Origin: Verrucomicrobiota bacterium
Lineage (GTDB): Bacteria > Verrucomicrobiota > Kiritimatiellia > CAIQIC01 > JAGNIJ01
Direction: 5' to 3'
Assembly (NCBI GenBank): GCA_036821485.1
Contig: DAISJM010000005.1
Location: forward strand, 16,815 to 80,814
Length of the DNA: 64,000 nt
Shown: positions 3,375 through 56,737 of the stretch, one piece after another
Position numbering within the stretch: the first letter of the stretch is position 1
How the letters are laid out: the number at the start of each line of letters is the position of its first letter
The notes under the pieces: model-generated
The model's input: only the letters and a program-made list of their open reading frames with translations
The model's database searches: none
What the model was told of the DNA's origin: nothing
Position numbers and translations under genes: made by a program

Positions 3375-3490
3375 AAAGGGACTCCCTCAGCTCAATACGT
3401 TCGATTGCTCATTCTAGGTAAACCCCTCGGGATTGTCAAAGTTAAGGGCTGTGGCTAAACTGCGCGAAACAGGAAGACCCACGGGCAAGT

Positions 3491-4288
3491 GTGAGCCGGA
3501 TGAGACACCATTTTCCTCCCAAATACATGCAGGGCGCTGCCATAGCCGCAGTGGGGCTGCTGCTGGCGGGCGCGGCGGCAGTTTTTCCAAGGGTTGGAAA
3601 AACAGGGGGTACCTTTTTCCAATCCTTGGAAAAAAGCACAGTTCCGATCACGGCGGGCACCGTTTTGGTGGGCAGCCGGACAGAGGAAGGGTTCCCAGCG
3701 CATCGGGCATGCTTAACACCTTATCGTATAGGTGTTTACGAAGTAACAGCCGACGAATATGCGATGTTTTTGACTGAGCAGGGCAGGAGGGATTGCCTTG
3801 CACCGCAGTTTGAGGTCCGGCGCGGCCGGATCGTGCCGAGGCGTGGGCAGGGGCGGAGGCCGGTGGCGCACGTAAGCCGGGACGAGGCGGTGGAGTACTG
3901 CCGCTGGCTGTCGGCGAAGTCCGGTGTGACGGTGCGGCTGCCGACGGAGGACGAGTGGGAGTGGGCTGCGCGAGGCGGCGTGGTGGGTGCGCGTTATCCG
4001 TGGGGGTGGGGTGCGCCGGAGGGGAAGGCGTCTTTTCGTGCGCGGCGCGTGGCGCGGGTGGGCGGGTTTGAGCCCAATGGTTTTGGGCTGTATGATGTGG
4101 CCGGTAATGTGTTCGAATGGTGCGCTACGTCGAATGGCGAGGCGGTCGTGCGCGGCGGCAGTTGGGCGGAGAGGGATGAGGCGTCGCTGCATGTGTTCCG
4201 GCGCGTGACGTTTCCGCAAGATTATCGCGGTGCGGACGTCGGGTTCCGCATCGTGGCGGAGGCCGCTGCGGCGCAGGGTGATGGCTGA
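3491..4288 (+). CDS. Formylglycine-generating-enzyme (FGE)/sulfatase-modifying-factor domain protein; N-terminal boundary uncertain
   Basis: The FGE-sulfatase domain starts at ~3660 (ITAGTVLVGSRTEEGFPAHRACLTPYRIGVYEVTADEY...GFRIV). The annotated N-terminus has a signal-peptide-like stretch, but 3582-3635 carries two AT-rich palindromes that look regulatory. The true start may therefore lie downstream. Confidence 0.7.
   Translation: MSRMRHHFPPKYMQGAAIAAVGLLLAGAAAVFPRVGKTGGTFFQSLEKSTVPITAGTVLVGSRTEEGFPAHRACLTPYRIGVYEVTADEYAMFLTEQGRRDCLAPQFEVRRGRIVPRRGQGRRPVAHVSRDEAVEYCRWLSAKSGVTVRLPTEDEWEWAARGGVVGARYPWGWGAPEGKASFRARRVARVGGFEPNGFGLYDVAGNVFEWCATSNGEAVVRGGSWAERDEASLHVFRRVTFPQDYRGADVGFRIVAEAAAAQGDG
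3582..3635. promoter_or_regulatory. Two phased copies of the palindrome TTTTTCCAA-N3-TTGGAAAAA (candidate operator array A)
   Basis: TTTTTCCAAGGGTTGGAAAAA (3582-3602) and TTTTTCCAATCCTTGGAAAAA (3614-3635). Centres are ~32 bp apart. The sites are strongly AT-rich in a ~64% GC background. The same motif occurs three times at 46227-46308. Confidence 0.6.
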
Positions 4289-6511: not shown

Positions 6512-8179
6512 ATGCTGACAAATCTCCGCGTAAAGAACCTCGCGCTGGTGGAAAGTATCCGGGTGGAATTCGGGCCGGGCCTGAATGTCATTACCGGCGA
6601 GACCGGTGCGGGCAAGTCCATCCTGATCGGAGCGCTGAGCCTGCTGCTGGGCGACCGGGCCGATCGCGGCATGATTCGCGCGGGCGAGGATGCGTGTGGT
6701 GCGGAAGCAGCTTTTCAGCTCAAAGACTCCGCCGCGGTGGATGAGGTCCTCGAAAAATACGGGATCGATCCGTGTCAGGACGGGCAACTGATCATCCGCC
6801 GCATCATCAAGGCGTCAGGTTCTTCCCAGAGTCTCGTCAACGACAGCCCGATCACGCTGCAGGCGCTCAAGGAGATCGGCCAGTTGCTGGTCGACATGCA
6901 TGGGCCGCACGATCATCAGTCACTGTTGAGTCCCGAGTTTCAGATGGATCTGCTCGACGCGTTTGGTCACTCGTGGGATGAGCGCGCAGCTTACGAGGAG
7001 ACGTTCCGAAAAATCCAGGCCTTGGAAGAGCGGCGCGCCGCGTTGGAAGGCGCCGGTGAGAATGTGGCGGAACAGATCGACCTCTTGAGCTACCGCGTGA
7101 AAGACATCGAAGAAGCGGCGCCGGTGGAGGGCGAGGAGGAGAAGGTTGAGCAGGAGCAGCTGCTCGTGGGTAACGCGCAGCGCGTGTTAGAGCTGGGGCA
7201 GGCCGCTCTGCAGGCTCTCGCCGAGGGTGAGGGATCGGCCTTTGATTCGATGGCCCTTGCACAACGATCGCTCGATGAGCTGGCGCGGCTGATGCCGGAA
7301 GCGGAGGAGTGGAAGACGGAAATCCATTCGTGTGCGTCCCGTTTGCAGGAAGTGTCTGCCACCCTGCACGGTGCGCTGGATCGCGTGGAAGCCGATCCGT
7401 CCCGTCTGGATTGGTTGGATCAGCGGCTGGCGACCTATCAGAGGCTGAAGCGGAAGTATGCGCCGACGGTCGAGGGCGTGCTGAAGATTCTACAGGAATC
7501 GAAGGATCGACTTCGCAATCTGGAGACACGGGGCGAGCAGTTGGCGGAGATTGAAAAGGAGAAGGAAGCCCTGTTGCGGACCTTGCGTACACAAGGCGGG
7601 GCGCTGCGCGCGAAGCGCAGCGGGGCAGCCAATCGGTTAGCGTTGGCGGTGACGCAGGAACTTCGGGCGCTGGGATTCGCGCATGGATCATTCTCGGTTG
7701 AACTGCGCGATGCGGAGCCACATCTCTCGGGCTTGGATGACATCGAATTTGGATTTGCGCCCAACGTAGGCGAACCGATGCGACCGTTGCGCGCCATTGC
7801 CTCGAGCGGAGAAATCTCGCGTGTCATGTTGGCGTCCAAAGCGGTGCTGGCAGGCCATGATCGAATCCCGGTTATGGTGTTCGACGAAATCGATGCCAAC
7901 GTCGGCGGCGAAATGGGCAGTGCGGTGGGGCGGAAGCTTGCAGAAGTGGCGCGCCAGCACCAGGTGATTTGCATTACGCATCTTCCGCAGGTGGCGGTCC
8001 ACGGTGTCTCGCATCTCGCAGTGACCAAGTCCGTCAAAGACAGCCGGACGATGACCGAAGTGAAACAGCTCGACGAACGCGGCCGCGTGGAAGAACTGGC
8101 GCGAATGTTGGGCGGCCGGGATTTGACCAGCGTCACACTCAAGCATGCGCGCGAGATGCTGGATGGCGTGAAGCGCTGA
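6512..8179 (+). CDS. recN: DNA repair protein RecN
   Basis: N-terminus MLTNLRVKNLALVESIRVEFGPGLNVITGETGAGKSIL (Walker A) and long coiled-coil middle. The C-terminus VMVFDEIDANVGGE...ICITHLPQVA carries the SMC-like signature/Walker B. 555 aa from the internal ATG at 6512. Confidence 0.9.
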   Translation: MLTNLRVKNLALVESIRVEFGPGLNVITGETGAGKSILIGALSLLLGDRADRGMIRAGEDACGAEAAFQLKDSAAVDEVLEKYGIDPCQDGQLIIRRIIKASGSSQSLVNDSPITLQALKEIGQLLVDMHGPHDHQSLLSPEFQMDLLDAFGHSWDERAAYEETFRKIQALEERRAALEGAGENVAEQIDLLSYRVKDIEEAAPVEGEEEKVEQEQLLVGNAQRVLELGQAALQALAEGEGSAFDSMALAQRSLDELARLMPEAEEWKTEIHSCASRLQEVSATLHGALDRVEADPSRLDWLDQRLATYQRLKRKYAPTVEGVLKILQESKDRLRNLETRGEQLAEIEKEKEALLRTLRTQGGALRAKRSGAANRLALAVTQELRALGFAHGSFSVELRDAEPHLSGLDDIEFGFAPNVGEPMRPLRAIASSGEISRVMLASKAVLAGHDRIPVMVFDEIDANVGGEMGSAVGRKLAEVARQHQVICITHLPQVAVHGVSHLAVTKSVKDSRTMTEVKQLDERGRVEELARMLGGRDLTSVTLKHAREMLDGVKR

Positions 8180-8187
8180 GTGTTGGC

Positions 8188-11100
8188 TCAATTCTTCTGA
8201 AGTTCCTGCTGGGCGGTATAGCGCAGGCGGACGGCATCATCGCTGGTGAGCTCGCCCGACTTGGCCAGGCTGGGGACGGCGGCATAGACGAAATCGGCCA
8301 ACTGTTCGCGGGTCCAGCCCTTCTTCTCCTGCAGCAGGCGCAGGTATTCGATATCCTGCAGGGCGCGACGCAGGGTCTTCAGCCGGAGCGATGCATAGGG
8401 TTTGTCCTGGTTCGCGGGCATGCCGCAGTAGAACAGCGACTGCGGACTCCCGCGGAGCCAATGTTCGGGAAGACCGATGGTCTCGCGGATGCTCCATCCG
8501 TCCGCGCCTTCGCAGAAGCCGGCGAGAGCCGTGGCTTCGACATCCAGCGGGGTCCGGCCCAGCGGTGCGCCTTCCGTCATCAGCCACAGCGTTTCGTCGG
8601 ATAATTTCTGCCGTTCACGCAGGCGCTGCCACGACAGGGGATCGGTATCGCTCACCGTCAGCAGGGAGAAAACGCCGATGCCGTAGTTGCCGATCAGACT
8701 CCCGTCGGGGACCGTGACGCGGAAGACAAACTTGTTCTTGGGCCATGCCGAGGCATCCGATGCGGCGACCAAGGCATAGGATTCCAAGGCCATGAAGTCG
8801 TCACGGAACAGAGGCTCACCAAGAAACCATGGCGGTGCCTTGCCCTTGTACGCGGTGGTCGGGACGTTGTTCAGCCAGAGATGCGCTGCGGTGGTGGACC
8901 AACCGCGGGATCTCAGATGCTCGCGAAACTTCTGGAGCGACGAACGGAAAGCCCGCCAGTAGTTGTTGTCGAGGCAGCTATAGATGCCCTCGGCAGGTCC
9001 GCTGAACACCTTGCATCCCGAGGGGGTGATGACTTCCTGATCCGTGCAGAGAAATCCGTCGAGCAGTGAGGCCGGCCAATTCTCGAAGAGCGGAAGAATA
9101 AAATGCGAGGCGGGTTCGCTGCCTTGGTCCAGGCCGCTGAATACGGAGCCGTCGATCACCCCTGCGTATCGATCGTCCCACGCCTGCCACGAGGGGATGG
9201 TGAGGTCGACGCCCTTTCCTGCGACGCGCGGGGCGAAAGGTTCCGTTACCTCACCATTCCTCTGATAGGGCAGCACGGCCATGGTGCAGAGGTGCTCGCG
9301 AGCCATGCGGTAGTAGGCCTGTTCAACGGGCAGGGCGTCATCCCTGTTCATCGCATCCTTCTTGTAGAGGAGCGCGAGCGACGGTGGTGCAAGAAGTTCC
9401 GCGGTGAATTCCGGTCTCGGCAGCGTGATGGGCAGGACTTCGAGATTCACATTCAGTTCGCTGGAGGTTCCGTCATCGCGGGTGATCTGGATGGGGCCGC
9501 GATAGACGCCCGGTGCGGTGGACGCGGGTATGTACAATTCAGCCAGCACGGATTGGCACGTTTGATTCGGCAGCCGATTGGGCAGCGCGGAGAGGGTCAT
9601 ACTTCCGGAGAGTGGAAGCAGAAGGTCGGCCGTCCAAATGCCGCCATCCGCCGGTGTGGTGGTGTGCGTATACCACGCCCGGTAGAAACGGAAGCCGACA
9701 CCCGGCATGCCGCTCTTCCCCGCTTGGAGCGGCTGCGCGGAGAATTTGAGCGTGGGGAAATCGGCTCCTTTCTTCACCAGGGAAATGATGAAACTGACGG
9801 TCTCATTTCGCGCAGCGCGAAGCCGAATGGTGCGGGAGGTGCGGTCCCATATATGAGACGAGGTCAGCGGTGCGCGGGCACGCGTTGCGTCGGCGTAGGC
9901 GCCGTTGATTGGGTCCACAGCGGCGGTCTCGTCGATGACCTGGAGACCGAGGGCGTTGGCGGCCACATCGATCGGTGCCGCGTCATACGTGTCGAGCTTG
10001 GCGGTCTCGGGCAGGGAGAGCAACTGGGGCGTGCGCACGGTTACTTCATTGAATGGGCCGGCCTGACCTGCTTCGTCGACGGCGCGAACGAAGAAGATGT
10101 AGGACATGTCGGGCTCAAGCTCATCGACGATCATCTGATCCTTCTGGCCGCCGGGTTGCGGGAACGGGATCAGGTTGCGCGGCATGTCCTGTGCGCGATC
10201 GGCGGTGTTCGGGGCCAGGGCCCAGCGCACGTCGTAACGGAAAGCTTGTCCCTCCTTGCCGTCGTCGCCCGGCGCGGTCCATGTGAGGAGAATGCCCACG
10301 CGGTCTCGCCGACGGAGGGACGGATGCGCATAGGCGCAGAGGTCCGACACATCACCGGGTGGCGCCATATCGATGAGGGCACCCTCGACTTCCAGATAGT
10401 GGCTGTTTTCCGCATCCTCGCGGCTGGCCACGGAGAGGGGTGCGTCGAGCTGCCCCTTGGCGTCCGTGATGGCCACGCCGTAGGCGGCATCGGCGACAAG
10501 AGCTTGGATCACGATGGGGTCGAGCGAGATGGATATCCAACCGTCAGCGTTGGTGGATGTCGAACCGAGTTCGCCGAACGCGGTGATGGAGCCGCCATTT
10601 CCGCGGATGACGTGAGGCAATGACGCGCCGTCTTGTCGCCAGGGCCGGTTGCCATAGTTCGCCCAGCGGAAGGTAGCGCCGGCGGTGGTCATGTCCTGCG
10701 TTGTGCCCTTGCCTTCGTCCCATGGCGTGGGAAGTGTGCTGAAGCCGAGGGCACGGCCCCGCCCGGATTTCACTTTGGCGTTCCACGTTGCGCGGTTGAT
10801 GGTCCATCCGCGGATTCGGCTGATGTCAAATTGGGCCAGCACCATGGAATCGTTGCCCTGCAGGAGCAGTTCCGTGGCGGCGCCGACATTGTGATCTTCG
10901 TTTCGCGAGACGGATGTGTCTGCGACCGGCGTCAGGCGCGCCTGTTTGAGGTGGGCGCGCTCAATATAGCCGGGCGACCAGACCGTGGGCCGTGGCGGTT
11001 TGATGTCCGGTACGGTTGATGTGTCGGGCGCCGGCGATGCGGGAGCCGGTGCAGCCGTCGGGGCTGATGTGGTGGAAACAGGGGTGGCGACCTTGGGTGC

Positions 11101-11373
11101 CGGGGAAGGGGATTGAACAGCCGCAGGGGTTTCTACCCGCTCGGTCCGCCTGACCACCTTGGCACCCGGGGGCAGGTTGGGGTAGAACTCGGCCTCGCTC
11201 TTGGCTCCCTCGCGCGATTTCAGCTGTGCATTGCGGACGCCCTTGTAGAACAGGCCGCCGAGGGCAATGGAGACGATAACGGCTGAGGCGTAGACCAAGC
11301 CGGAAACGAAGTTGAACGGCATCACCGATTTGTGGCGGTGAGGCGTCACATGGCGTTTACGAATTTTCCGCAT
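8188..11373 (-). CDS. Large membrane-anchored exported protein with Pro/Ala/Thr-rich linker and fibronectin-III-like domain (hypothetical, ~1060 aa)
   Basis: Single N-terminal TM (VSGLVYASAVIVSIALGGLF), a PAPKVATPVSTTSAPTAAPAPASPAPD linker, and an fn3-like segment LTWTAPGDDGKEGQAFRYDVRWA. Last gene of the minus-strand cluster after wzm/wzt. Start is M at 11373 (ORF extends to 11448). Confidence 0.6.
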   Translation of the reverse strand: MRKIRKRHVTPHRHKSVMPFNFVSGLVYASAVIVSIALGGLFYKGVRNAQLKSREGAKSEAEFYPNLPPGAKVVRRTERVETPAAVQSPSPAPKVATPVSTTSAPTAAPAPASPAPDTSTVPDIKPPRPTVWSPGYIERAHLKQARLTPVADTSVSRNEDHNVGAATELLLQGNDSMVLAQFDISRIRGWTINRATWNAKVKSGRGRALGFSTLPTPWDEGKGTTQDMTTAGATFRWANYGNRPWRQDGASLPHVIRGNGGSITAFGELGSTSTNADGWISISLDPIVIQALVADAAYGVAITDAKGQLDAPLSVASREDAENSHYLEVEGALIDMAPPGDVSDLCAYAHPSLRRRDRVGILLTWTAPGDDGKEGQAFRYDVRWALAPNTADRAQDMPRNLIPFPQPGGQKDQMIVDELEPDMSYIFFVRAVDEAGQAGPFNEVTVRTPQLLSLPETAKLDTYDAAPIDVAANALGLQVIDETAAVDPINGAYADATRARAPLTSSHIWDRTSRTIRLRAARNETVSFIISLVKKGADFPTLKFSAQPLQAGKSGMPGVGFRFYRAWYTHTTTPADGGIWTADLLLPLSGSMTLSALPNRLPNQTCQSVLAELYIPASTAPGVYRGPIQITRDDGTSSELNVNLEVLPITLPRPEFTAELLAPPSLALLYKKDAMNRDDALPVEQAYYRMAREHLCTMAVLPYQRNGEVTEPFAPRVAGKGVDLTIPSWQAWDDRYAGVIDGSVFSGLDQGSEPASHFILPLFENWPASLLDGFLCTDQEVITPSGCKVFSGPAEGIYSCLDNNYWRAFRSSLQKFREHLRSRGWSTTAAHLWLNNVPTTAYKGKAPPWFLGEPLFRDDFMALESYALVAASDASAWPKNKFVFRVTVPDGSLIGNYGIGVFSLLTVSDTDPLSWQRLRERQKLSDETLWLMTEGAPLGRTPLDVEATALAGFCEGADGWSIRETIGLPEHWLRGSPQSLFYCGMPANQDKPYASLRLKTLRRALQDIEYLRLLQEKKGWTREQLADFVYAAVPSLAKSGELTSDDAVRLRYTAQQELQKN

Positions 11374-13506: not shown

Positions 13507-14010
13507 CTACCGCGATCCGGACTTCTTTTCCAGCGCTTCGAGCACCAACGTGGCCCGGCCGAAGCCCGGCACCTGGTCCTGCGCGCTGATGTTGAGCTCG
13601 GCCAGCCGCCACGGCGGCCTGTTGCCGGACTCCGAGACGCGATCAAGCAATCGGGAAAGATCGGCCAGGCGGATACGATCGATGGTTACTTCCACGCTGC
13701 GCAGGGTCCAGCCTTCGGCTAGGGGACGCGACTCGCGGAGCCGTTGCTGGGTCTCGATGCCGGGGAAGGCGCTGCGGAGAAGGTTGTCCAGCGGCGCGGG
13801 TGTGTGCTGCGGCAGCTTTTCATATAGCTCGATTGCGGCAGTTTCCCGGTCGCAGCCGGCCTGCAGGACGCGCAGTTTTTCCAACGTGTCGATCCGGCTG
13901 CGGATCTGGCGCGCGGATTCCGGTGTAAGGCGCAGCGCCTGCACGGTGATGAGGATTCCGGCGGCGAACATCGCCGCCGACGCCATAAGAAACATGGAGC
14001 GCCGCGTCAC
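13507..14010 (-). CDS. gspM: T2SS protein M / PilO-like bitopic inner-membrane protein
   Basis: 167 aa with N-terminal TM (MFLMASAAMFAAGILITV), a coiled segment and a periplasmic domain. It lies immediately downstream of a GspL-like gene with a 4-bp overlap. Confidence 0.5.
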   Translation of the reverse strand: MTRRSMFLMASAAMFAAGILITVQALRLTPESARQIRSRIDTLEKLRVLQAGCDRETAAIELYEKLPQHTPAPLDNLLRSAFPGIETQQRLRESRPLAEGWTLRSVEVTIDRIRLADLSRLLDRVSESGNRPPWRLAELNISAQDQVPGFGRATLVLEALEKKSGSR

Positions 14011-45426: not shown

Positions 45427-45530
45427 TCATCCGCGTGTTCCGCGGTTACTGACGGCTGTCTGTGGCGTCAAAACGCCGCAGATGCACTTTCTTCTTGCGC
45501 GGGGGGGCGGTGAGGGATAGACATAGGGTC

Positions 45531-46208
45531 ATGAGCGCGGACATTGCTTATCCTACTTCCAGCGGCCCCCGAAAAATCAACATCCTGGTTTTGTGCATTC
45601 ATCCCGAGTTGGGTGAGGCCTTTTTGCAGAGCGTGTGCACCGGCGCGTCTGGGACCAGTGGCGAAACGGTGGTCGAAAACCGCCCGATCCAGATGGAAGT
45701 GCTCGCGGGCGACCCCCGCCTCACGCCCACCTGGGACGAGAGCCTGAAGAAAGCCGATGCGATTGCGCTCCTCGTCCGCTTTCTCGATGTCATCTCGCTC
45801 GACAAGATCCGCGCCATTTACCGCCGGCTCCCCAGCGAGCGGACTTCCCCGATGTCTGTCGTCCTCTTCCGCGAGGAAGGGGAAATCGATTTCAAGATGA
45901 GCTGCCCCGCGTGCGGCCAGAAGCTGTGGGTGCGCGATACGGACATCGGCAAACGCGGCCGTTGCCCGAACTGCAAGAAGGCCTTCAAGCTTCCGTCGCA
46001 GGCCGGCCATCTCAAGTCTCAGCTCATGCTGCCCGACGCCGTGCCCGCGCTGACCGTCGTGCGCGGCAAGCCGGCCACCTGCCGCGGCGCCCTCGCGAGC
46101 CTTCTGGCCTACCTCAGCGGCACCATCGTGCCGGGGGCCGAGAAGCTCGACCAGGAAACGCTCAAGAAGACCACCGTCCGCGTCCAGATTCAGGACACGG
46201 AGAGCTGA
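45531..46208 (+). CDS. Hypothetical protein: N-terminal alpha/beta (pseudo-receiver/pseudo-GTPase-like) domain + MJ0042-type zinc ribbon
   Basis: Alternating beta-strand/helix pattern (KINILVLC..., ADAIALLVRF..., MSVVLFREEG) with no P-loop or phospho-acceptor Asp pair. Zinc ribbon CPACGQKLWVRDTDIGKRGRCPNCKKAFKLP. Start chosen at MSADIAY (ORF from 45462). Confidence 0.45.
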   Translation: MSADIAYPTSSGPRKINILVLCIHPELGEAFLQSVCTGASGTSGETVVENRPIQMEVLAGDPRLTPTWDESLKKADAIALLVRFLDVISLDKIRAIYRRLPSERTSPMSVVLFREEGEIDFKMSCPACGQKLWVRDTDIGKRGRCPNCKKAFKLPSQAGHLKSQLMLPDAVPALTVVRGKPATCRGALASLLAYLSGTIVPGAEKLDQETLKKTTVRVQIQDTES

Positions 46209-46226: not shown

Positions 46227-46308
46227 GTTTTTCCAAGCATTGGAAAAAGTGTCGCCATTTTTTCCAACCCTTGGAAATTTTGCCCCCGGTTTTTCCAAGG
46301 ATTGGAAA
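46227..46308. promoter_or_regulatory. Three phased copies of palindrome TTTTTCCAA-N3-TTGGAAAAA (candidate operator array B) immediately upstream of the thioesterase gene
   Basis: TTTTTCCAAGCATTGGAAAAA (46227-46247), TTTTTTCCAACCCTTGGAAATTTT (46257-46280) and TTTTTCCAAGGATTGGAAAA (46289-46308). Centres are 31 bp apart. The array ends 21 bp before the ATG at 46330. Confidence 0.65.
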
Positions 46309-46329
46309 AGTTGTTGAGAGGTCCCGATC

Positions 46330-54283: not shown

Positions 54284-56737
54284 TCAGATGAAAAGCGTTG
54301 TTCCCGACTGATCGGCCTCGGAAAGAAACGAAGCCACACCGCCCAGATCGATGCCGTCGATGAGCTCTTCCCGGTGGAGGCCCATCACATCCATGGACAT
54401 CGTGCAGGCGACGAGTTTCACGCCTGCCTTGCGCGCGGATTCGATGAGCGACGGCAGGCTGTCGACCTGCTTCTGTTTCATCACGTGCTTCATCATCATC
54501 GTGCCGAGTCCGAGCATGTTCATCTTGGAAAGTTTCAGGGCGGCCGCTCCGCGCGGCATCATCATGCCGAACATGCGATCGAGCAGCGGTTTGTTCGTTG
54601 GCGAGGGGTTGCTCTTGCGCAAAGCGTTCAAGCCCCAGAAGGTGAAGAACATGGTGACTGCGCTGCCCATGGCGGCGGCGCCATTGGCGATAACGAATGC
54701 GGCAAGAACCTTATCGAGGTCGCCGGAGAACACGACCATGGACTTCTTGGTCGGGCCGGTGGAGGCAGTTGAGGCGCCGGTCGGGCATGGGCTGCCCTTG
54801 CGGATGTGCGCCTCAACGCGCGAGCCGTTTTGGCGAATGTCGATGAGCGTGTGGCCGTTGCTGAGACACCATGCCGGCGCATCGGTCAGGAAGCCGGGAT
54901 CGCTGGCGCACACGGAGAGTTCGTCGCCCACGTTCATGCCCTGGACGGCTTCCTTCAGGCGCATGATGGGGCCGGGGCATTGCAGGCCGCAGCAATCGAG
55001 TTCCACGGTGCGGCCGGTTGGCGCGGCGGTCTCGGCCATCTTCTCCTCGGCGTAAGCGAGGAACGGCGGGCTCTGGGTCTGGCTGCAGACGGCGCCGCCG
55101 TGATACGAGCAGAACGTGGAGGAGCCGCCCGCGAGGGTGAGGACTTGTCCAAACCCACGCTGGAGAAGCAGTCGGTAGGCGAGGTAGCTGCGGAACCCGA
55201 CTTTGCAGTAGACGAAGAGGGGACGATCCTTGGGCAGTTCCGCGACGCGCTGGCGCAGCTCACCCAGCGGAATGTTGATGGCGCCTGGAATGTGCCAGAT
55301 GTCGAATTCCACTTTGCCGCGGACGTCGATCAGCACGCCCCCCTCCGTCTTGGCGGGGTAATCCTCGGCGTACCAGAAGCGGATATCGCCGCGCAGAAGA
55401 TTAGCGGCGATGAAGCCGGACATGTTGACCGGATCCTTGGCCGAGCCGTAGGGCGGTGCATAGGCGAGTTCAAGATTTTCCAGATCGTATACGGTCAGCT
55501 TCGCGCGAAGAGCCGTGGCGAATACATCCAGGCGCTTGTCCACGCCGTCGAAGCCGACGACCTGGGCTCCGAGCAGACGGCCTGTGTCGGGGGCGAAGAG
55601 GACCTTGATGTGCAGTGGTGCCGTGCCGGGGTAGTAGCCGGCATGGCCGGACGGATGCAGGTAGACCTTGTGATAAGGTATCTTCAGCTTCAGCAGTTGC
55701 TTTTCTGACGCGCCGGTGCCGCCCGCCGTCATCGTGAAGACTTTCACGATGGCCGTGCCCTGCGTGGACGAGTAGGTGGTCTTACGTCCGCAGATGTTTT
55801 CCGCCGCGATGCGTCCTTGACGGTTGGCCGGACCGGCCAACGGGATGACCCATGAGTCCGGCAGGACTTCGTGCGAGACTTCGACCACGTCACCTGCGGC
55901 GTAGATGTGCGGGTCCGAGGTCCGCATATGTTCGTCCACGCGGACGCCGCCACGTGGTCCAAGTTCCAGGCCTGCTGCGCGGGCGAGGGTGGTTTCCGGG
56001 CGGACGCCTGCAGCAAGGATCACAAAGTCGGCCGTGACCACCTCAAGGTTCTTCAACTCCACGGCGACTTTCCCGCCCGTTGCATCGCGAAACGCAGCGG
56101 CGGCGGTCCCGAGATGAAACCGTATGCCGTGCTGTTCCATGTGGGTCTGAAGGTCGCGGACCATCTCGCGGTCCAGCGGGGGCATGATCTGGTCGAGCAT
56201 CTCGACGAGGTCGACGGTCAGGCCCCGCTCCCTCAGGCTCTCTGCCATCTCAACCCCGATGTAGCCACCGCCGATCACGACCGCACTCTTGGCGCTGCCA
56301 TCGACCATGGCTTTGATTTGGTCCATGTCTTCGATATTGCGCAGGACACATACGCGGGGATGGTTGATGCCGGGCAGGTCGGGCTTCAACGGGATGGCAC
56401 CCGGACAGAACACAAGCTTGTCGTATGTCTCATCATACTCGCGGCCGGAAGCGAGTTCGCGAATGCGCACGCGTTGGGCCTTGCGGTCGATGGAGAGCAC
56501 CTCGTGACCGGTACGGACATCGAGATTCAGCGAGGCCTTGAGGCTTTCCGGTGTCTGGAGGAGAAGCTGCTCGCGGTTCTTGATGTCGCCGCCGATATGG
56601 TAGGGCAGGCCACAGTTGGCAAAGGAGACGTAGTTGCTCTTCTCGAGCATGATGATCTCCGCGCGTTCGTCCAACCGCCGCGCCCTTGCCGCTGCCGATG
56701 CGCCGCCTGCCACTCCGCCAATGACCACGATCTTCAT
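54284..56737 (-). CDS. Four-domain sulfur-trafficking oxidoreductase: CoA-disulfide/persulfide reductase (FAD/NAD(P)H) + rhodanese + TusA + DsrE/DsrF-like
   Basis: 817 aa. FAD motif KIVVIGGVAGGASAA, CoADR Cys in SFANCGLPY, NAD site VVIGGGYIGVEMA. Rhodanese (...LFVYCKVGFRS...). TusA CPxP motif CCGLQCPGPIMRLKEA. C-terminal DsrE-like (VVFSGDLDKVLAAFVIANGAA...KLVACTMSMDVMG). Confidence 0.8.
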   Translation of the reverse strand: MKIVVIGGVAGGASAAARARRLDERAEIIMLEKSNYVSFANCGLPYHIGGDIKNREQLLLQTPESLKASLNLDVRTGHEVLSIDRKAQRVRIRELASGREYDETYDKLVFCPGAIPLKPDLPGINHPRVCVLRNIEDMDQIKAMVDGSAKSAVVIGGGYIGVEMAESLRERGLTVDLVEMLDQIMPPLDREMVRDLQTHMEQHGIRFHLGTAAAAFRDATGGKVAVELKNLEVVTADFVILAAGVRPETTLARAAGLELGPRGGVRVDEHMRTSDPHIYAAGDVVEVSHEVLPDSWVIPLAGPANRQGRIAAENICGRKTTYSSTQGTAIVKVFTMTAGGTGASEKQLLKLKIPYHKVYLHPSGHAGYYPGTAPLHIKVLFAPDTGRLLGAQVVGFDGVDKRLDVFATALRAKLTVYDLENLELAYAPPYGSAKDPVNMSGFIAANLLRGDIRFWYAEDYPAKTEGGVLIDVRGKVEFDIWHIPGAINIPLGELRQRVAELPKDRPLFVYCKVGFRSYLAYRLLLQRGFGQVLTLAGGSSTFCSYHGGAVCSQTQSPPFLAYAEEKMAETAAPTGRTVELDCCGLQCPGPIMRLKEAVQGMNVGDELSVCASDPGFLTDAPAWCLSNGHTLIDIRQNGSRVEAHIRKGSPCPTGASTASTGPTKKSMVVFSGDLDKVLAAFVIANGAAAMGSAVTMFFTFWGLNALRKSNPSPTNKPLLDRMFGMMMPRGAAALKLSKMNMLGLGTMMMKHVMKQKQVDSLPSLIESARKAGVKLVACTMSMDVMGLHREELIDGIDLGGVASFLSEADQSGTTLFI

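Follow-up and report, generated by a model that had tools for sequence, protein, structure and literature searches.

Phased arrays of a 21-bp palindrome in Kiritimatiellia-type genomes, translated in frame within an FGE-type gene, as candidate cooperative protein-binding sites

The window analysed here, 64,000 nucleotides of contig DAISJM010000005.1 from a Verrucomicrobiota bacterium of the class Kiritimatiellia, contains two short arrays of a 21-bp AT-rich palindrome, one (array A) inside a gene for a protein of the FGE/SUMF1 type, and the other (array B) flanked by genes for a zinc-ribbon protein and a 4HBT thioesterase. Array A lies within the open reading frame (ORF) 3491-4288 and consists of two palindromes, A1 (TTTTTCCAAGGGTTGGAAAAA, 3582-3602, centre 3592), which has the form TTTTTCCAA-GGG-TTGGAAAAA, and A2 (TTTTTCCAATCCTTGGAAAAA, 3614-3634, centre 3624, followed by one extra A at 3635), which has the form TTTTTCCAA-TCC-TTGGAAAAA. 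Their centres are 32 bp apart, and the spacer between them (3603-3613, 11 bp, CAGGGGGTACC) is GC-rich and differs among orthologs. Array B has three units (46228-46310) with centres at 46238, 46269 and 46300, 31 bp apart: B1 (46228-46248, TTTTTCCAA-GCA-TTGGAAAAA), B2 (46258-46278, TTTTTTCCAA-CCC-TTGGAAAT) and B3 (46290-46310, TTTTTCCAA-GGA-TTGGAAAAG). It is intergenic, between a stop codon at 46208 and the thioesterase start (ATG 46330), which B3 precedes by about 20 nt. An earlier inspection made from the letters alone (the sequence-only reading) had pointed out the two dyads within the FGE ORF and the threefold recurrence of the motif, with 31-bp phasing, near 46.2 kb; both arrays are genuine, non-random, and spaced by whole helical turns as cooperative dimer binding predicts. 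Perfect TTTCCAA-N3-TTGGAAA dyads number exactly five in the window (two in array A, three in array B), and relaxing the search to TTCCAA-N3-TTGGAA again returns exactly five. Base composition predicts about 0.001 perfect sites per 64 kb, and none of 100 dinucleotide shuffles matched the observed count. The runner-up site has two mismatches, so that decayed copies are absent from the window.

The FGE/SUMF1-type gene (3527..4288, + strand) starts at ATG 3527, or at the in-frame GTG 3491 or ATG 3500. It encodes, in this order, a signal-peptide-like N-terminus (3527-3581, MQGAAIAAVGLLLAGAAA), an 18-residue linker that is the translation of array A in the same frame (VFPRVGKTGGTFFQSLEK, with A1 read as V-FPRVGK-T and A2 as FFQSLEK), and a complete FGE-sulfatase domain. 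In Pfam this domain covers residues 48-255 of ORF 3491-4288 and profile positions 3-254 of 255. It begins at the last codon of A2; the sequence-only reading had correctly placed it very close to the array, but its estimate of about 25 bp downstream was still too far. The same reading had suggested that the array is an operator rather than coding sequence, and that either the start of the gene is mis-set or a regulator binds within the leader. The start is not mis-set and the array is coding, since the domain is complete from residue 48, the array is translated between signal peptide and domain, and homologs keep the frame. The sole in-frame start once array A begins is a TTG at 3626, inside A2 and without a plausibly spaced ribosome-binding site.

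At least 11 of 22 aligned homologs (47-97% identity; four confirmed as syntenic) have the signal peptide, the array and the FGE domain in one frame. In homologs of 47-76% identity a hydrophobic signal peptide is followed by the peptide FFQxLE, FPxxGK or SxxWK, these being the three reading frames of the palindrome, and then by the domain; unit number and spacing vary among the array-bearing members. DNA was checked for four orthologous loci, L129 (72% identity), L131 (59%), L133 (53%) and L228 (51%), which share with the window the gene order membrane protein, FGE, lipid-A acyltransferase. Each has two or three palindromes at the same place, always with the reading frame kept, and with perfect stems except for a single mismatch in one L228 unit; centres, spacers and the choice between 31- and 32-bp spacing differ. 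In the 97%-identical cluster P0001 array A is unchanged. In other FGE homologs the domain directly follows a signal peptide or lipobox, with 18-30 fewer residues at that point. Two array-less FGE loci, L226 (20.7 kb) and L227 (14 kb), have no perfect dyad and no half-site, the best match in L227 having one mismatch, and genomes with the palindrome system also carry an array at FGE.

Upstream of the gene lie two predicted back-to-back sigma-70-like promoters (3411..3461) that share a near-palindromic -35 block, ATTGTCAAAG. One would serve FGE (3433-3461, + strand, TTGTCA-17-TAAACT) and the other the divergent membrane-protein gene (3439-3411, - strand, TTGACA-17-TAGAAT). The block ATTGTCAAAG is kept upstream of the FGE orthologs in L129, L131, L226 and L228, and in L133 as TTGTCAAAG; it is thus found at loci with or without the array, L226 being the array-less one. 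Array A begins about 120 bp 3' of the FGE promoter, which places it inside transcribed and translated sequence. The complete domain, the in-frame array in orthologs and the array-less L226 with its promoter block together indicate that the FGE start is not mis-set, that the array is translated and that the promoter is independent of it: the promoter block is context, separate from the repeat. A promoter within the array was also considered and rejected on inspection, as the -10 element 17 nt after TTGGAA would be TTCCAA, which matches poorly. The FGE gene (3491-4288) has atypical codon usage, with a GC content at third codon positions of 0.69 against about 0.75-0.85 in neighbouring genes, and for this reason gene calling by a codon model misses it. 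It may have been horizontally acquired, or be under relaxed codon selection.

The palindromes of the window belong to a family that extends well beyond this genome. A scan of one genome per species, with two phased palindromes as the query, returned at least 118 stretches, and among the matches listed the motif occurs in at least 46 assemblies (species-level genomes). The named matches among them are labelled Kiritimatiellia, Kiritimatiellales, Pontiella, 'Lentisphaerae', 'Spartobacteria' or 'Verrucomicrobiota', and a few are titled only 'uncultured bacterium'. The cultured species Tichowtungia aerotolerans (CP047593.1) carries the motif; locus L229 of its genome (2973313-2994677) has 11 palindromes with at most one mismatch in 21 kb, mostly within genes; the genome has 50% GC, and the species would lend itself to experiments. 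The DNA fetched for comparison came to about 0.94 Mb, in fragments of 2-21 kb per genome. From 470 sites in it we derived the consensus TTTTCCAA-K-S-M-TTGGAAAA, that is, two 9-bp half-sites flanking a central G·C pair. Of the 947 perfect 6-3-6 palindromes in this DNA, 395 have the arm TTCCAA, and the next commonest arm occurs 10 times. At the centre, 99% of the 470 sites have G or C (0.53 and 0.46). The base before the centre is mostly T (0.49) or G (0.31), and the base after it A (0.50) or C (0.28). By eye, in the five sites of the window, these left and right inner preferences look independent for each half-site. Inner positions of the type T..A or G..C extend the dyad and leave a single unpaired base, which is unfavourable for a hairpin. 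The position-frequency table of the 470 sites shows GC-rich spacers that are not conserved, and, beyond the runs of T and A, no tetranucleotide that recurs. TTCCAG..CTGGAA was found five times, and double mismatches are symmetric in three of five cases; covariation of the stem is ambiguous, since the FPxxGK frame puts mirrored positions both at third-codon positions. At 13875-13884 the window also has a lone half-site, TTTTTCCAAC, with the partner arm absent, the only other occurrence of TTTTCCAA in it.

Clusters comprise one to six units, and arrays two to six. Between neighbouring units in the fetched loci the distance from centre to centre is 31 bp in 123 cases, 32 bp in 103, 21-22 bp in 12, and 30 and 33 bp in five each, with no case of 23-29 bp. 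The common spacing is therefore three helical turns (31-32 bp) and the less common one two turns (21-22 bp). The orientation of neighbouring centres is random, with 72 identical pairs where 73.7 are expected, and 48 reverse-complement pairs where 40 are expected; the latter excess, which would correspond to the inverted pairing of REPIN elements, is not significant. We found no description of the motif in the open-access literature on Kiritimatiellia, Lentisphaerae or Verrucomicrobia, searches with the exact motif strings included, and the family is apparently undescribed. A viral origin was rejected: only 11 matches were found in 2.9 million viral contigs, and about five of them look genuine. 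Typical arrays occur on the viral contigs L217, L220-L222 and L225, which may represent prophages or pieces of host DNA.

Positions relative to genes were assigned with a self-trained codon model, whose calls are approximate and miss FGE, so that the positional statistics are approximate as well. Arrays of at least two units are intergenic between tandem (71), convergent (23) or divergent (16) genes, or lie inside ORFs (42). The first 17% of the ORF accommodates 25 of the 42 intragenic arrays, and several others are at the extreme C-terminus. The sequence-only reading had named, as observations that would speak against it, random positions inside many coding regions without bias toward 5' ends, or the absence of the motif from orthologs with a conserved N-terminus. 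These were found in part: there is no exclusive 5'-end bias, and both promoter and signal peptide persist in orthologs that lack the array. Density per kb is 4.2 in convergent, 3.1 in tandem and 1.8 in divergent regions, and 0.21 in coding DNA. In several convergent cases the flanking ORFs score highly and their stop codons lie 4-30 nt from the array. No family recurs among 230 genes adjoining arrays, which include a phosphoribosyltransferase, a YggS-like protein, MFS transporters, fucosidases, GH97, mnmE and aroB. Two links to function were considered and discarded. Many arrays adjoin signal peptides, but secreted proteins are not favoured, as a hydrophobic N-terminus is found in 40% of array genes versus 45% of others (p=0.54). 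A sulfatase/FGE regulon does not fit either, with only two sulfatases among array genes and heterogeneous neighbours.

Arrays inside conserved genes show how the sites relate to the encoded protein. MnmE (two arrays), AroB and a PyrD-like enzyme were aligned with solved homologs, and the segments encoded by palindromes show no net insertion; alignment gaps are at most single-residue in MnmE and PyrD, and AroB is shorter there by five residues. About 100 of 120 MnmE orthologs (69-100% identity) have VFPxLGKKLDESFQxLE, and most also SxVWKIADEIFQxLE. The most distant orthologs have VLPGIAAKLDAQAEQLE instead, and since the length is the same, the array form arose by substitution, the change from VLPGIAAKL..AQAEQLE to VFPNLGKKL..SFQTLE being free of indels. 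The mnmE palindromes are kept at the DNA level between L099, from a Kiritimatiellales metagenome-assembled genome (MAG), and T. aerotolerans, and are absent from the array-less locus L231 (21 kb, no sites). Where the L099 and T. aerotolerans genes encode identical residues, the same codon is used at 15 of 18 positions in the palindromes versus 133 of 325 elsewhere (odds ratio 7.2, Fisher p=4.5e-4). Synonymous sites are thus constrained within the mnmE palindromes. In coding DNA generally, the three reading frames of the palindrome are used about equally (48/55/45), which indicates that the constraint is on DNA and not on the peptide. The dyad is free of stop codons in every frame (FSxxWK, FQxLEK or FPxxGK). 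Relative to transcription, the centre base has a weak strand bias, with 131 C and 93 G. In L230, from the Kiritimatiellaceae MAG JABFQY01, the MnmE peptides FPNLGK and FQCLE are kept (10001-11365) with the DNA palindromes degraded (TTCCGAACCTCGGAA); the first mnmE array is gone, and the 21-kb locus has one perfect site only. These 'fossil' arrays may mark a lineage that lost the palindrome system.

Array B was read in 10 contigs of its own species, obtained from independent metagenomes, and is unchanged there except for two single-base variants, both in spacers. At the corresponding site of related species with the same gene order, L135 has two units, L137 and L138 have one unit plus remnants, L139 has one degenerate unit and L136 has none. 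Distant homologs in other gene contexts have no units.

Our favoured reading, which we hold tentatively, is that the arrays are cooperative binding sites for a clade-specific dimeric DNA-binding protein with a genome-wide role. Each dyad would be bound by a symmetric dimer of a putative sequence-specific protein particular to Kiritimatiellales, and neighbouring dimers, lying on the same face of the helix, would bind cooperatively and form a nucleoprotein complex. A symmetric dimer that reads the duplex is suggested by the obligatory central G·C pair in either orientation, the inner half-site preferences seen by eye, the random orientation of units, and the whole-turn spacing with free spacers. 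In particular, the 46/53 split between the two centre bases is the expectation if a G·C pair in duplex DNA is recognised by a symmetric protein. A genome-wide factor acting in trans is suggested by the array-less relatives sampled (14-21 kb), the persistence of orthologous sites, the synonymous constraint and the functionally unrelated neighbours; the copy-free loci L226 and L227, set against the system genomes with their FGE arrays, fit a dependence on such a factor. From these features of the family we infer protein binding, its cooperativity and a function for the complexes. That function would be genome-wide and not the regulation of single genes: the complexes would be architectural, as nucleoid-associated structures, or would form roadblocks or boundaries of a general kind. 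Selection on DNA would keep the sites perfect, including in coding sequence, which the absence of stop codons from every frame of the dyad allows. The FGE array is simply translated as a linker after the signal peptide, and, if occupied, could at most present a roadblock some 120-170 bp beyond the promoter.

A bolder version, which we consider doubtful, is that the arrays amount to a sequence-coded organisation of the nucleoid, in which a hundred or more arrays per genome are read by a clade-specific oligomerising protein with an architectural, boundary or roadblock function, and which has no described bacterial counterpart. The figure of a hundred or more is an extrapolation from two arrays in the 64-kb window, with more in denser genomes. 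If this version were true, selection would be strong enough to rewrite codons of housekeeping genes such as mnmE, aroB and pyrD. If a dedicated protein does read the arrays, this clade of polysaccharide-degrading anaerobes, which has been little studied, would have a DNA-protein system that is new, sequence-specific and genome-wide, and the idea is directly testable, since the cultured T. aerotolerans has a complete genome and carries arrays. The synonymous constraint in housekeeping genes is an unusually clean case of selection or drive at the DNA level overriding codon choice. The arrays also matter for annotation: predicted proteins of the clade acquire from them the recurring peptides FSxxWK, FQxLEK and FPxxGK, start codons are easily misjudged, and an array can mimic a local operator, as with array A.

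Several observations sit uneasily with protein-bound arrays. Convergent, tandem and divergent intergenic regions are occupied alike (0.30, 0.20 and 0.21 per region, from crude gene calls), with no obvious regulatory logic. Array-bearing intergenic regions exceed array-less ones by about the length of the array, and the site of array B, intergenic and orthologous among related species, has between 0 and 3 units; both patterns resemble insertion or expansion. Paired units can fold into a long hairpin (21-bp stem, -32 kcal/mol). Each genome has its own 'dialect' of bases flanking the centre, such as TGA/TCA at 78 of 79 sites in CAIVKH01 and mostly GCC/GGC in CAISWQ01. Such dialects would need the coordinated turnover of hundreds of sites, and copying or drive explains them more easily. 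Finally, loci were ascertained on pairs of exact palindromes, and the conservation of the core and the preference for arrays are therefore partly built into the sample.

Several of these points would be expected of selfish or neutral hairpin repeats, like REP (repetitive extragenic palindromic) elements, REPINs or MITEs, spread by a transposase, expanded by slippage and surviving where they are tolerated, namely between genes, at gene ends and in linkers. Such an origin seems unlikely to us, although it would account for the 10-20x intergenic enrichment with occupancy slightly highest between convergent genes, for arrays that add their own length to otherwise tiny intergenic regions, for the ~18-30 codons added at FGE compared with array-less orthologs, for the variable array B among related species, for whole genomes with or without repeats and the genome-specific centre variants, and for unit pairs able to form a 21-bp stem. 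Spacers within one array are sometimes related, suggesting tandem duplication, and intragenic REPs are known (PMC3733652). On the other hand, the GTAG or CGTC tag at one end that defines REPs (PMC3733652) is absent from the 470 sites, as is any conserved flank, the dyads are perfect, AT-rich and symmetric where REPs are imperfect and GC-rich, and one core is common to at least 46 species whereas REP families differ between species. Random orientation of centres means that pairs are not inverted as in REPINs, and spacing is quantised in helical turns although spacers are unconserved. The mnmE, pyrD and aroB arrays add no length, that of mnmE being traceable by substitution alone, and neither the synonymous constraint nor the lack of decayed copies in the window would be expected. 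REPs and BIMEs, which are mobilised by RAYTs, do resemble the dyads in being short multicopy palindromes, clustered, mostly intergenic and occasionally intragenic (PMC3733652). They lie mainly 3' of genes, however, whereas the untagged dyad arrays seem, on the crude gene calls, to occupy all intergenic types about equally. The dyads also have a core common to an entire order or class, and in mnmE the array originated in situ, without an indel. Rickettsia palindromic elements (RPE) are mobile insertions of ~100-150 bp, unlike the 21-bp units with a 31-32 bp period described here, some intragenic copies of which replace rather than add sequence. The two are alike in that palindromic repeats lie in frame within genes and are translated as extra peptide (PMC3733652).

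Molecular drive, acting either through a DNA-uptake signal for a competence receptor or through biased repair or gene conversion, we consider quite unlikely. Its analogues would be the uptake signal sequences (USS) of Pasteurellaceae, the DNA uptake sequences (DUS) of Neisseriaceae and HIP1 of cyanobacteria, all of them genome-wide, clade-conserved motifs with lineage dialects. The dyads share with these their over-representation throughout the genome, conserved genes included, the origin in place by substitution at positions tolerant of change, the lineage dialects and the persistence of orthologous positions; the fossil sites of L230, whose lineage has apparently lost the system and keeps the peptides but not the palindromes, would also fit. 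Known uptake sequences are, however, single motifs, asymmetric in USS and DUS, and HIP1 is an 8-bp palindrome; none is known to come in obligatory phased arrays, whereas the dyads are perfect and strictly phased. Intergenic enrichment is also far above that of USS and DUS, and we know of no documented competence in this clade. The combination of properties seen in the arrays matches none of REP/BIME, USS/DUS, HIP1 or RPE.

Hairpins acting at the RNA level, on mRNA stability, translation initiation or termination at gene boundaries, are very unlikely to be the explanation, although arrays lie close to stop and start codons and array transcripts fold far more stably than shuffled ones (z from -5 to -6; array A, -32 kcal/mol). 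Alternative pairings are possible, because each unit's right arm can also pair with the left arm of the unit that follows, and the sense strand has the weak excess of C over G at the centre noted above (131 to 93). On its own, a unit folds weakly (-6 kcal/mol, z about -1.5 to -2), the stems lack a following U-tract, and both centre orientations are common relative to transcription. The positions flanking the centre tend to be complementary, leaving a 1-nt loop, there is little covariation in a stem whose sequence is fixed, and RNA has no need of a spacing in multiples of 10.5 nt. Intrinsic terminators likewise differ, since the stem here has five A·U pairs plus CCAA/UUGG, worth -6 kcal/mol per unit, and is followed by a spacer and not by U's. 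Rfam gave no match at the arrays that reached a family's gathering threshold; its only matches in the window, a tRNA and V_AS7, lie elsewhere.

That array A is a local operator for FGE and the divergent membrane-protein gene, for instance for the NtrC-like regulator encoded nearby, or marks a mis-annotated FGE start, was the proposal of the sequence-only reading and is now highly improbable. Dyad symmetry, helical-turn phasing and the retention of an array in the 5' region of FGE in several species agree with it, but the array lies downstream of both predicted promoters (3411-3461), outside the control region shared by the two genes, and is translated, an array-less ortholog locus keeps the promoter block, and the motif occurs in at least 46 genomes of the clade, beside unrelated genes, between convergent genes no less often than between divergent ones, and in housekeeping genes. 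Equally improbable is a slipped-strand switch in which gain or loss of 31- or 32-bp units shifts the frame of genes with arrays near their 5' ends and causes phase variation. In its favour, the unit length is not divisible by three, numerous intragenic arrays fall within the opening 17% of the ORF, and unit number differs among species. Against it, most arrays are intergenic, array B has a constant unit number in the 10 same-species contigs, array A is unchanged in P0001, and arrays occur in essential housekeeping genes such as mnmE and aroB.

Among known regulators, protein-bound arrays of this kind are most readily compared with two. The NrdR-box consensus, acaCwAtATaTwGtgt, differs from that of the dyad. 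NrdR binds as a tetramer, in a manner dependent on helix phase, to paired palindromic boxes with strongly conserved linkers of 15-16 bp and about three turns between centres, and variants one turn longer exist (PMC12051234, PMC13584703). It is thus a precedent, studied by experiment, for the spacing rule seen here: the likeness lies in the pair of boxes about three helical turns apart, as in the 31-32 and 21-22 bp quantisation of the dyad arrays. NrdR sites, however, are few per genome and confined to nrd promoters, whereas the dyad arrays extrapolate to a hundred or more sites per genome, with up to six units, at every type of position including coding sequence; no nrd gene was found among the array-adjoining genes checked with Pfam. 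Lrp/AsnC-family (FFRP) proteins bind odd-centred AT-rich dyads, for example TGAAA-N3-TTTCA for the archaeal FL11, with sites about three helical turns apart that wrap an octamer, and have a global, nucleoid-like role. This resemblance is a lead only, and the consensus differs from that of the dyad. CRISPR arrays have a leader, cas genes and unique spacers of about 26 bp or more that are comparable in length to the repeats, unlike the 0-1 or 10-11 bp spacers and two to six units of the dyad arrays, and no cas-like domains were seen among neighbouring genes with Pfam hits, in which no dedicated cas search was made.

Some minor observations were made alongside. The gene preceding array B (45462-46208, + strand) encodes a conserved 248-aa protein with a C-terminal zinc-ribbon (CPACGQK...CPNCKK), and in related genomes it always lies between EF-G and the array B/4HBT gene. 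The IMG/VR contig UViG_3300018422_000008 (L224) carries at 7607-7846 a different repeat family, TTCCAAAGTTTGGAAC, in six copies spaced by 36-60 bp. Lastly, the Rfam match to V_AS7 (RF02819, a Vibrio antisense RNA) lies at 56550-56718 of the window (+ strand) and scores 98.6 bits, above the gathering score. It is antisense to a gene for an 817-aa Pyr_redox/Rhodanese/TusA/DrsE protein (54284-56737, - strand), and probably reflects conserved coding sequence and not an RNA gene.

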